Origin: Chamaesiphon sp. | GTDB lineage: Bacteria; Cyanobacteriota; Cyanobacteriia; Cyanobacteriales; Chamaesiphonaceae | Direction: 5' to 3' | Assembly: GCA_041738715.1 (NCBI GenBank) | Contig: JBGSPI010000130.1 | Location: forward strand, 1-24,000 | Length of the DNA stretch: 24,000 nucleotides | Shown: piece by piece, positions 3,435 to 6,593 of the stretch | Numbering within the stretch: position 1 is the first letter of the stretch | How the letters are laid out: the number at the start of each line of letters is the position of its first letter | Made by a program: the position numbers and the translations under genes | Notes under the pieces: model-generated | Database searches by the model: none | What the model was told of the DNA's origin: nothing | Seen by the model: only the letters and a program-made list of their open reading frames with translations

Positions 3435-4601
3435 CTAACTCAACAATTTCTGGATTCTCTCACCAGTGCGTTGATTTTCCGATGGAGAACCAATCGAAAT
3501 TCGCAATCCGCCACCCGTATATCTAATCAAAGTTCCCTGTTTTTTCAACTGTGCGACTAGCTCTGCCATTGCCAAATCAGGGTTACTTAAACCCTGAATT
3601 CTGGCATACAAGAAATTAGCATTACTTCGCCAGATTTCGAGATGATTAATTTTAGCTAATTGATTAAATAATCGATCGCGTTCACCAATTATTTCAGGAA
3701 TAACTGCAAGTAGCGAATTACGATTTTTCAAGACTAATTCTGCGGCTGCAAGTGAAAAACTTGGTAAATTATAGGGCAACCTGACTTTCTCCAATGCCGC
3801 GATTAATTGGGGATCCCCAATCCCATAACCCACACGATGAGCCGCTAGTCGAAATGCTTTCGAGAAAGTGCGCAACACAATCCAATTTGGTCGTTGGGTT
3901 AATTCAGCTACTACTGTATGTTGACTGAACTCAAAATAAGCTTCATCCACTACTACTAAAATATCTGACGGCAAACTGCGTAACCATTCTAATTCAGCTA
4001 CCGTCAAGGCATTACTAGTTGGTGAATTAGGATGCACCATAAAGACCACCCGAATCGGTGGATCTGTTTGAGTATCAATAGCCTTCTGCGCCGCCGCTAA
4101 ATCCACTGCAAAATCCACTGGAGATCGATCGACACTCACCACTGGAATCCCCAATGTTTGGGCTAAAATTCCATACATACTAAACGTAGGATTAGCGACT
4201 AAAATACTGCCGGCACCATCGATACAAGTAGCGATTAAAATCGATCGAATTAACTCATCCGAACCATTCCCTACCGTAATCCGATCGGGTAAAATTTCGA
4301 GATTACCACCCGCCGATTCTGCTATATATTTGGCGATCGCCACCTTGAGATTACCATGTCCACCATCAGGATAACGATTGCTCTCGATCGATTTCACCCA
4401 GATCTGCGCTAACTCCTCCTTCAGAGCTAATGGCAAATCGTAGGGATTTTCGTTCGTATCCAATCGATCAATCTCCATCGCCACAGATTGCCCATCAGTA
4501 CCACCAGGATGGGGCGTGTAGGCTTGGAACCTCGTAAGTTCGGGACGAACGAAGGATAGTGCGGTTGTTGTTGGCGGAACGCTCTGCTGATCGGTAGTCA
4601 T
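3435..4601 (-). CDS. hisC: Histidinol-phosphate aminotransferase
   Basis: The product carries the TNENPYDLP motif and the PLP-lysine context RTFSKAFRLAAHRVGYG, and it has class-II aminotransferase length. I place the start at the ATG at 4601 (MTTDQQ...). The track ORF extends to a GTG at 4661, inside the hairpin-rich IscB element end. Confidence 0.85.
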   Translation of the reverse strand: MTTDQQSVPPTTTALSFVRPELTRFQAYTPHPGGTDGQSVAMEIDRLDTNENPYDLPLALKEELAQIWVKSIESNRYPDGGHGNLKVAIAKYIAESAGGNLEILPDRITVGNGSDELIRSILIATCIDGAGSILVANPTFSMYGILAQTLGIPVVSVDRSPVDFAVDLAAAQKAIDTQTDPPIRVVFMVHPNSPTSNALTVAELEWLRSLPSDILVVVDEAYFEFSQHTVVAELTQRPNWIVLRTFSKAFRLAAHRVGYGIGDPQLIAALEKVRLPYNLPSFSLAAAELVLKNRNSLLAVIPEIIGERDRLFNQLAKINHLEIWRSNANFLYARIQGLSNPDLAMAELVAQLKKQGTLIRYTGGGLRISIGSPSENQRTGERIQKLLS

Positions 4602-4687
4602 AAGAAAATAATGGGAGGTCGGGAAACCCCGTCGTTTCAACGCGGGGAGGAACGACGACACGAGCGGTTTTAACCGCTTGAATGCGC

Positions 4688-6016
4688 CTACGAGTGAAAC
4701 TGGTAGTTGTATCCGTCTTTACGATGAATCACTTCACAATATTTATGACTAATACCCTGCACTAAACCAATTTTTGTTGAGATGTTAAATGACCCTGATG
4801 TTCTAACCGCAATCCGACCGACATAAAGACCTATCTTCTTGCCAGTTGTCACAACAGATTTCACAATATCTCCTGTTTGAAATCCTCTAACAAATTTGTC
4901 GCGGGGGACAAATCGGTTAGGGAATCCAAACTTATCGGTACGGCACATCTGTCTAGTGCCGTGACCTTGTGCTTTAATCAGCAACGGTTGAGTAATTAGC
5001 ACGAATAGAGTTTCAACAACACCAACACAAGCGGCATCCAGCCAGTGAGTTTTAGGTAAACCCAATCGAGTCCTGTTGAACTTAGTTAAGCCACCAGAAC
5101 ACGTTTTCACTGGTAATTCAGTCGCTTTTAGAGCATTGAATAATGCCCATCGAGTTGAGTTAATCGCAGCCGCATCCTTTAAGGGACGTTTAGCTTGAAG
5201 TTGGATTTTCTTCAGCAATTCAGGTTTCTTTGACAAGAAATCTTTAATATCCAAAGTTCCTTTCTTCTGGTTACACTTTTCACAAGCCAAGCATAAATTA
5301 GAGATCCGATTAGATCCTCCTTTAGCCTTGGGTTGGATATGTTCAATTTGAAGCGGAACATTTTCAACCTGACAGTAGGCGCATTTTCGCGCCCACTTAT
5401 TGAGTAGGTATTCGCGAACTTCGTAGCCTAATAATTCGCCTTGCTGGTATTCAACCCCAGAGATTTCAGGATTCTCTAACTGCTGAAGATCGAAGCGAAC
5501 CAACTCTTGAACAATCGAGCCAATCGGTGCGAACTTAATTAGTTTGTTAACCCAAGTTAGAGTCGTGTCAACTCGATGTTGGAGGCTAGGAGCTAACCAA
5601 CCCTTTGCCCTTGTTCGATTGAGAAATCTGGCTTGACGATATCGAGTCTTTCGGTTGCGCCTGCCGCGTCGCAATTGACGACGGGACAATAGTGCAGCTT
5701 TGATGGTTGCACCTCGATGAGTTAGTTCCGCCGCCCAAATAACCTTGTCGTTTTGAAGCAATGCGATACCAGTAGTTTTACTACCAGGGTCAAGTTTGAC
5801 AACGATAGGAGTTGGGGTTCGATCGACTTCAGACTTGCGGCGCATCGAAGTTGAGGTTTCCTCAACTTTGTGTGCGTCAAGACAGAGGATGATCGTAAAT
5901 GGGTAAACCCTGTAGACAGCAGCTTTGCCAGCCTTGAGTAGCCGTCTAGCCGCCCCTGGATGGATTGGATCTAATGGTTGTTTATTTGAGTTGAGAACGA
6001 AAGTGAAATTAGACAT
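4688..6016 (-). CDS. iscB: IscB RNA-guided endonuclease (PLMP-like N-terminus, RuvC-I, Arg-rich bridge helix, RuvC-II, HNH, RuvC-III, C-terminal TAM-interacting region)
   Basis: Motifs in N-to-C order:
- PLMP-like region: NKQPLDPIHPGAARRLLKAGKA
- RuvC-I: VKLDPGSKTTGIALL
- bridge helix: RRQLRRGRRNRKTRYRQARFLNR
- RuvC-II: IVQELVRFD
- HNH with two Cys pairs: CAYC...LQIEHIQPKAKGGSNRISNLCLACEKCNQKKG
- RuvC-III: THWLDAACVG
I place the start at the ATG at 6016 (MSNFTFVL), which is preceded by AAGGAGG (complement of 6023-6029). The track ORF adds 12 upstream codons that lie in the omega-RNA region. Confidence 0.85.
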   Translation of the reverse strand: MSNFTFVLNSNKQPLDPIHPGAARRLLKAGKAAVYRVYPFTIILCLDAHKVEETSTSMRRKSEVDRTPTPIVVKLDPGSKTTGIALLQNDKVIWAAELTHRGATIKAALLSRRQLRRGRRNRKTRYRQARFLNRTRAKGWLAPSLQHRVDTTLTWVNKLIKFAPIGSIVQELVRFDLQQLENPEISGVEYQQGELLGYEVREYLLNKWARKCAYCQVENVPLQIEHIQPKAKGGSNRISNLCLACEKCNQKKGTLDIKDFLSKKPELLKKIQLQAKRPLKDAAAINSTRWALFNALKATELPVKTCSGGLTKFNRTRLGLPKTHWLDAACVGVVETLFVLITQPLLIKAQGHGTRQMCRTDKFGFPNRFVPRDKFVRGFQTGDIVKSVVTTGKKIGLYVGRIAVRTSGSFNISTKIGLVQGISHKYCEVIHRKDGYNYQFHS

Positions 6017-6290
6017 TACTGTCCTCCTTGCGGGTAATGTTTGCTTCGTCAATGTTATTTAGGCTTGTGGTCGGGTCGGCGACCCGACCGGCTAAACGCA
6101 CTGTTCCAGTGACCTTAGAACTGTTTAACGAGTAGCGATAGAGCAAGGGACTAGCACGCATCCCAGGATATCGTGACCTAATTAACGTAGCTAGATTGCT
6201 CTAGCTAAGACTGGTCAGCACGGCATTAGACTAAGTAGCCTGATGCCCCGTCTCTTCAGAGCGGGGTTGCTGACGGTGAGTTGGCGCAAG
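6017..6290 (-). ncRNA. Candidate IscB omega-RNA (HEARO-class RNA). The 5' boundary and guide position are not resolved.
   Basis: This stretch directly upstream of iscB has no plausible long ORF and is dense in stems:
- 9-bp stem 6070-6078/6082-6090 (ggtcgggtc/gacccgacc)
- 7-bp stem 6190-6196/6201-6207 (agctaga/tctagct)
- bulged stem ccccgtctc/gagcgggg at ~6246-6266
- long-range ggtcagc (~6213) with gctgacg (~6269)
Its position and size match what is known for IscB omega-RNAs. Confidence 0.5.
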
Positions 6291-6416
6291 TCTGAACTCT
6301 TATCATAGATCGATCGCTGGTATTAGTCGGCATAAATCTGCTGCGGTGGAATCACGAGACGGCTCTACTCCCTACTGCAAAATTTTCAACCCTCAGAAAA
6401 AAATATCGTTTAGGTA

Positions 6417-6445
6417 TTGACAGCGAGAAAAATATCCCGTATATT
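6417..6445 (+). promoter_or_regulatory. Sigma-70-type promoter of tRNA-Glu
   Basis: TTGACA (6417-6422), a 17-nt spacer and TATATT (6440-6445). The -10 element ends 18 nt before the mature tRNA 5' end. Confidence 0.6.
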
Positions 6446-6463: not shown

Positions 6464-6536
6464 GCCCCCATCGTCTAGAGGCCTAGGACACCTCCCTTTC
6501 ACGGAGGCGACAGGGATTCGATTTCCCTTGGGGGTA
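6464..6536 (+). tRNA. trnE: tRNA-Glu (anticodon UUC), CCA not encoded
   Basis: GCCCCCATCGTCTAGAGGCCTAGGACACCTCCCTTTCACGGAGGCGACAGGGATTCGATTTCCCTTGGGGGTA. It folds as a cloverleaf with acceptor GCCCCCA/TGGGGGT (G1-U72), anticodon loop CTTTCAC and a T-arm with GGATTCGATTTCC. It is very close to cyanobacterial and plastid tRNA-Glu. Confidence 0.95.
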
Positions 6537-6554
6537 TTTCAGAAATGATCAGTA

Positions 6555-6593
6555 AAAGAGGTCAGACAAAACTTGTCTGACCTCTTTTGTTTT
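6555..6593 (+). terminator. Rho-independent terminator of tRNA-Glu
   Basis: A perfect 15-bp stem (AAAGAGGTCAGACAA 6555-6569 with TTGTCTGACCTCTTT 6573-6587) and a 3-nt loop, followed by TGTTTT. Confidence 0.8.

Follow-up and report, generated by a model that had tools for sequence, protein, structure and literature searches.

The window analyzed here, 24,000 nucleotides of Chamaesiphon sp. DNA (assembly GCA_041738715.1, contig JBGSPI010000130.1, positions 1 to 24,000), carries an iscB gene behind a long structured leader, and raises the question of what RNA this leader encodes, where its guide lies and what that guide would target. Read on the minus strand, host DNA is followed by GUCAGC (from 6274), a 241-nt structured stretch, AAGGAGG and the iscB ATG (6016). 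A cmscan search against Rfam recovered one RNA family at the leader, HEARO (RF02033), aligned over model positions 1–211 of 211 at 6034–6274 (minus strand) with 134.7 bits (gathering score, 83; E = 3.1e-28), and this is the only HEARO match in the whole genome. The scaffold so delimited ends at 6034, directly upstream of iscB and on the same strand, the intervening 3' tail of the leader (6017–6033, minus strand) holding the iscB Shine–Dalgarno sequence AAGGAGG (6029–6023). HEARO RNA was later shown by experiment to guide IscB, according to papers that cite Weinberg et al. 2009 and Altae-Tran et al. 2021. Because the match is full length, exceeds the gathering score and directly precedes an IscB equivalog in the same orientation, we assign the structured leader to the ordinary full-length IscB guide RNAs (omegaRNA, Rfam HEARO).

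The nuclease gene itself (4688–6016, minus strand; 442 aa) encodes a protein with Pfam RRXRR (235 bits) and HNH domains, which scores 460 bits against the NCBIfam equivalog NF040563, “RNA-guided endonuclease IscB” (guided_IscB; cut-off 175), and matches solved IscB structures. Its translation contains RuvC-I D76, RuvC-II E171, HNH H226/N249, and RuvC-III H324/D327, together with the HNH cysteines C212, C215, C245, and C248. With residue roles assigned by motif, the catalytic motifs are intact and the protein is predicted to be an active nuclease. The nearest IscB relative retrieved (L115), at 89% amino acid identity, is itself truncated. It comes from a 2.8-kb contig assigned to a Burkholderiales MAG and contains neither the omegaRNA nor the first ~60 codons; this bin assignment is doubtful, as all other close IscB relatives are cyanobacterial.

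Four stems on the minus strand had been claimed for the leader in an earlier note made from the sequence alone, and a reading of the sequence finds all of them in place: a 9-bp stem (GGUCGGGUC at 6089–6081, loop GCC, GACCCGACC at 6077–6069), a 7-bp stem (AGCUAGA at 6206–6200, loop GCAA, UCUAGCU at 6195–6189), a bulged CCCCG...CGGGG stem within 6266–6246, and a long-range pairing of GUCAGC (6274–6269) with GCUGAC (6219–6214). Three of the four are consensus helices of Rfam HEARO. The remaining one, the 9-bp hairpin with its GCC loop (6069–6089), appears as inserted residues in the cmscan alignment and is thus an insertion relative to the Rfam consensus; of two same-genus copies with this hairpin, L038 matches it exactly and L025 departs from it by one wobble and two compensatory changes. 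The statement that the leader has no credible open reading frame holds in general, but a 50-aa frame at 6161–6009 spans the structured RNA and the iscB start.

Folding and comparative evidence both point to a structured RNA. The 281-nt leader folds at -97.7 kcal/mol versus -78.2 +/- 5.2 for shuffled sequences (z = -3.75), and none of 200 shuffles folded as well. For covariation, the HEARO structure from cmscan was mapped onto an alignment that MAFFT had built, with no structural information, from 23 copies in related genomes. Paired cells made up 78.8% of this alignment versus 31–44% when partners were slid by one to three columns, 47 of 67 base pairs showed compensatory change on both sides, and none of 500 shuffles matched any covariation measure. 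The compensatory changes for which the earlier note had looked to homologous copies are therefore clearly present, extending over 14 helices and 240 nt, and its candidate omegaRNA is borne out by the RF02033 match, the IscB equivalog downstream and the covariation together. The window copy resembles other HEARO/IscB omegaRNAs in its full-model match, its position and orientation relative to iscB, its variable guide directly abutting the conserved GUCA at the scaffold's 5' end, and its multi-helix covarying fold. It differs from them by the 9-bp hairpin at 6089–6069, which is common to some same-genus copies, and 10 of the 67 consensus pairs are noncanonical in it.

Since the genome holds a single copy of the element (one HEARO match and one iscB) and so offers no paralogous copies, its boundaries were mapped with empty sites in relatives, as the earlier note had advised. 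The 5' end of hisC lies ~150–270 nt from tRNA-Glu in 8 of 11 same-genus loci versus 1862 nt in the window, and in at least five same-genus genomes the empty site can be read to the base, hisC passing into the tRNA-Glu spacer without interruption. Eight empty same-genus sites were aligned with the window. With junctions marked by a slash, the empty sites read ...TTCAGACTTCACCACGCACC/ATGACTA... and the window reads ...TTCAGACTTGCGCCAACTCACC/GTCAGC...(element)...TATTTTCTT/ATGACTA...; the empty-site junction is thus ...CACC/ATGACTA, and from 6275 onward the window is homologous to the empty-site flank. By this comparison the element is the 1673 bp at 4602–6274, inserted without target duplication or a single duplicated base, and its omegaRNA-side boundary is fixed at 6274/6275.

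Conservation among the 23 copies starts exactly at GUCA, and the preceding 25 nt are unrelated between copies. In published IscB work, the spacer lies directly 5' of the scaffold and has an effective length of 15–16 nt. Because of the 6274/6275 boundary and the start of conservation at GUCA, the guide is CUUGCGCCAACUCACC (6275–6290, minus strand), host DNA outside the transposon that lies directly 5' of the scaffold and flush with its start at 6274. Its working length of 16 bases is presumed from the published systems, and it may extend 5' to about 6297. Before the insertion, this segment formed the 3' portion of the leader of hisC. It lies nearer to the scaffold than the interval 6285–6315 proposed earlier, reaching at most to about 6297, and GATCGATCGC at 6308–6317, described then as host-like, belongs to the host DNA that precedes a conserved TATGAT resembling a -10 box, and is not guide. 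The genome contains one perfect match to the guide, its own site, and no site in the genome with three or fewer mismatches to the guide has ATGA following it. For these reasons the guide spells only the element's own empty site, and its predicted target is the donor joint that excision would create.

The other end of the element was delimited by the empty sites, a homologous element in the same genome (on contig C79), an alignment of 21 left ends, and L115, which aligns with the window's left end through ATGA and then diverges. This left end (4602–4687, minus strand) carries two subterminal hairpins and finishes ...UAUUUUCUU, placing the target junction ...TTCTT/ATGA at 4602/4601 and the opposite terminus, GTCAGC, at 6274. 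ATGA or GTGA adjoins nearly all related left ends with a locatable boundary, and by analogy with these and with the N/ATGA rule, the ATGA of the window (4598–4601, minus strand; TCAT on the plus strand) is the target and the likely TAM of its IscB. Both ends of the element carry subterminal hairpins with compensatory changes relative to C79 and other copies; at the omegaRNA end, the scaffold's first hairpin (6266–6246) doubles as the subterminal hairpin. A profile of the 21 left ends showed a common architecture and hairpin covariation, and the element has neither terminal inverted repeats nor a target-site duplication. In the canonical IS200/IS605 TnpA frame, the omegaRNA end is the right end and the left end is at 4602, downstream of iscB. 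The earlier note had placed the guide at the 5' end of the RNA, at or beyond the transposon's left end: the guide does lie outside the boundary and 5' of the scaffold, but the end that it adjoins is the right one, the left end being that flanked by TCAT/ATGA at 4602. Meers et al. (bioRxiv 10.1101/2023.03.14.532601) likewise assign the HEARO region to the right end and locate the TAM next to the left one.

The element is of a kind already known, a non-autonomous ISC element of the IS200/IS605 superfamily. Kapitonov et al. (2016; PMC4810608) described ISC elements as having a 5'-GTCA terminus, an N/ATGA target in cyanobacteria and no duplications, and as sharing their ends with a TnpB element of opposite gene orientation. 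Like ISC1-1_MA of Microcystis aeruginosa and similar elements (PMC4810608), the window element begins with 5'-GTCA, is inserted at N/ATGA without duplication, has subterminal hairpins but no tnpA of its own, and shares an end with an opposite-strand TnpB-only element. In contrast to them, it resides in a different host lineage as a single copy, and the nearest relative retrieved reaches no more than 89% identity to its IscB. The TnpB-only element of the same genome lies on contig C79 (165–1500, locus L054); its end upstream of tnpB is 88% identical to window positions 4602–4658 and also adjoins ATGA, with a compensatory change from CCCCG/CGGGG to CCGCG/CGCGG between the two left ends. At its other end, which is laid out like the omegaRNA end, a G-rich hairpin precedes a short tail that finishes with AC. 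With the shared ends in register, tnpB lies on the strand opposite to iscB. Among the HEARO copies of relatives are also ORF-less mini-elements of ~360–450 bp in which a full scaffold is joined to a left end with no iscB (L056, L058, L060, L062, L063, L065, L069, L074, and most G041/G038 loci, L076–L114).

Three Y1 TnpA (Y1_Tnp) loci are present in the genome, one of them with an internal stop. Searching the genome with the left end, by BLAST and an nhmmer profile, recovered the element itself, the TnpB element of contig C79, a relic on contig C24 and a few further marginal matches, none of them at a TnpA locus. The relic (C24:7993–8072; nhmmer E = 6.5e-5) is degenerate and left-end-like, lacks RTGA, and lies just upstream of a co-oriented glutamate-synthase-like gene. 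The element may be mobilized by one of the genome's TnpA genes; these searches linked none of the three loci to it.

The host gene at the left end is hisC (histidinol-phosphate transaminase; 3435–4601, minus strand; NCBIfam NF002726 equivalog, 590 bits, cut-off 391), whose start codon (4601–4599) follows the element directly and is the ATG of the ATGA target. Elsewhere in the genome the only hisC paralogue is one at 27% identity. As hisC now begins directly after the left end, its expression presumably depends on read-through from the element, which a weak terminator-like hairpin and U-run in the left end (4630–4615) could limit. The DNA upstream of the guide is the divergent hisC/tRNA-Glu spacer, in which GATCTATGAT (6311–6302) is invariant among nine aligned same-genus spacers with varying surroundings. 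This conserved block contains TATGAT (6302–6307, minus strand), a putative -10 box of the native hisC promoter; a strict sigma-70 scan found no full minus-strand promoter upstream of the guide. The omegaRNA is probably transcribed from this host promoter. If TATGAT is the hisC -10 box, transcription would start at ~6297–6293 and the RNA 5' end would fall 3–7 nt before the 16-nt guide, so that the old hisC leader would serve as guide with little or no 5' trimming. The only promoter found by the sigma-70 scan is a near-consensus one (TTGACA, 17 nt, TATATT; 6417–6445, plus strand) before tRNA-Glu(UUC) at 6464–6536, and the tRNA is followed by a 35-nt inverted repeat (6554–6588) that is kept in relatives and placed like a two-way terminator.

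Our preferred reading, to which we assign a probability of about 85%, is that 4602–6274 is a non-autonomous ISC element, consisting of omegaRNA scaffold, iscB, and left end, which sits between the hisC leader and the hisC ATG and whose nuclease cuts its own donor joint. Minus-strand transcription would begin outside the element, in host DNA, with the native hisC promoter ~20 nt upstream as its probable origin, giving an RNA that comprises the host-derived guide (6290–6275), the scaffold (6274–6034), iscB, and probably hisC. IscB would bind the scaffold. If a trans-acting Y1 TnpA excised the element, it would leave a resealed donor joint, CTTGCGCCAACTCACC/ATGA, that combines the guide match with a 3' TAM; the IscB–RNA complex would cut this joint, and recombination with another chromosome copy would restore the element. 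For the IscB element ISGst of Geobacillus stearothermophilus, the part of Meers et al. considered here (bioRxiv 10.1101/2023.03.14.532601) likewise has the guide outside the element boundary, so that its synthesis requires outside transcription. As presented there, ISGst and the window element are alike in an omegaRNA bounded by the right end, in such an outside guide, and in a TAM that is the TnpA target beside the left end (TTCAT in ISGst, TCAT in the window). Donor-joint cleavage is proposed for both, the window element being known from sequence alone. They differ in placement: the window element is inserted precisely at a host start codon, which that part of Meers et al. does not discuss.

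The main competitor of this reading concerns present activity and leaves the identity of the RNA untouched. The element could be an inactive resident, a recently arrived and stranded copy with no cognate TnpA, whose guide never meets a target and whose complex is idle or decaying. It is present once in the genome, no TnpA locus has matching ends, and many relatives are gutted, being reduced to a scaffold plus left end without an ORF or, in L115, carrying a truncated iscB. The 442-codon frame of the window, however, is open with every catalytic motif in place, the scaffold is full length at 134.7 bits, and a coexisting TnpB element with the same ends suggests that a shared transposase was present recently; we consider an inactive resident improbable.

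Two further alternatives touch the RNA itself. If transcription began further upstream, the RNA would carry a longer 5' extension, and the guide might then lie at 6285–6315 or be set by processing instead of being the 16 nt flush with the scaffold. This is very unlikely, given that IscB spacers lie directly 5' of the scaffold and are effective at ~15–16 nt in published systems, that the copies are conserved from GUCA onward with no linker between spacer and scaffold, and that 6302–6311 is conserved in genomes without the element and hence is a host signal. The structure might instead be a cis-acting leader affecting translation or stability of iscB or hisC, or mere DNA hairpins of a transposon end, in keeping with the coincidence of the first hairpin with the right-end DNA hairpin and with a leader that ends at the iscB ribosome-binding site. 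Covariation over 14 helices and 240 nt goes far past the terminal DNA hairpin, though, ORF-less copies retain the whole scaffold, and the cited accounts give HEARO as experimentally established IscB guide RNA, which together make this the least credible of the alternatives.

The placement of the element on the hisC start codon recurs among related elements. Among the window copy and those of five related genomes (set 1; relatives' loci L055–L114), 16 of 31 assignable left ends adjoin an RTG that opens a frame of at least 75 codons, and several of these frames are recognizable as gene N-termini (thrB, purT, sufB, recQ, and rubredoxin). In an independent set from a wider genome collection (set 2; L115–L194), 22 of 38 left ends are on such an RTG frame; a pair among the 22 resembles a single orthologous insertion, and for two of the 38 the sequence ends too few codons past the ATG for an assessment. 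As a control, 17.9% of all 64,524 RTGA sites in the window's own genome open a frame of at least 75 codons. When an in-frame upstream stop is also required, the control falls to 2.9% (stop within 12 codons) or 5.1% (within 35), compared with 11 and 16, respectively, of the 31 set 1 left ends; this comparison applies to set 1, the 5' scaffold profile used for the right-end boundary having recognized 15 of the 80 set 2 loci. About half of the related HEARO/IscB insertions thus end exactly on the start codon, ATG or GTG, of a host gene in the same orientation, against an RTGA background of 3–5%. Start codons go unmentioned in Kapitonov et al. (2016; PMC4810608). In many relatives, GGAG or GGAGG stands 5–9 nt ahead of the target ATG, where a ribosome-binding site of the docked gene would be expected (L095–L111, L062, L063, L069, L157, L165, and others); the motif is absent from the left ends of the window element and the contig C79 element (...CCCATTATTTTCTT/ATG).

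One tentative explanation, which we rate at slightly less than even odds, is that these cyanobacterial IscB/HEARO elements have been selected for docking exactly on the start codons of co-oriented host genes, whereby ATGA would provide the ATG, the host promoter and its short leader would provide the guide, and the host gene would be expressed by read-through, helped in many relatives by GGAG. The window element on hisC would then be one instance of docking, with the former hisC leader as its guide. Much of the enrichment may also be mere survival of insertions that do not disrupt genes.

The element is a textbook IscB–omegaRNA element of a well-known kind, and what is newly settled is the location of its guide. 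The value of the locus is thus one of annotation, guide and target now being given to the base. A guide directed at the element's own vacant site fits the published role of IscB in homing and retention; nothing points to a novel function or target. The element occurs once, its nuclease is intact and sister species provide exact empty sites, which makes the locus a clean natural case in which to ask whether the guide is supplied by a host promoter. It is also one more independent case of docking on a start codon.
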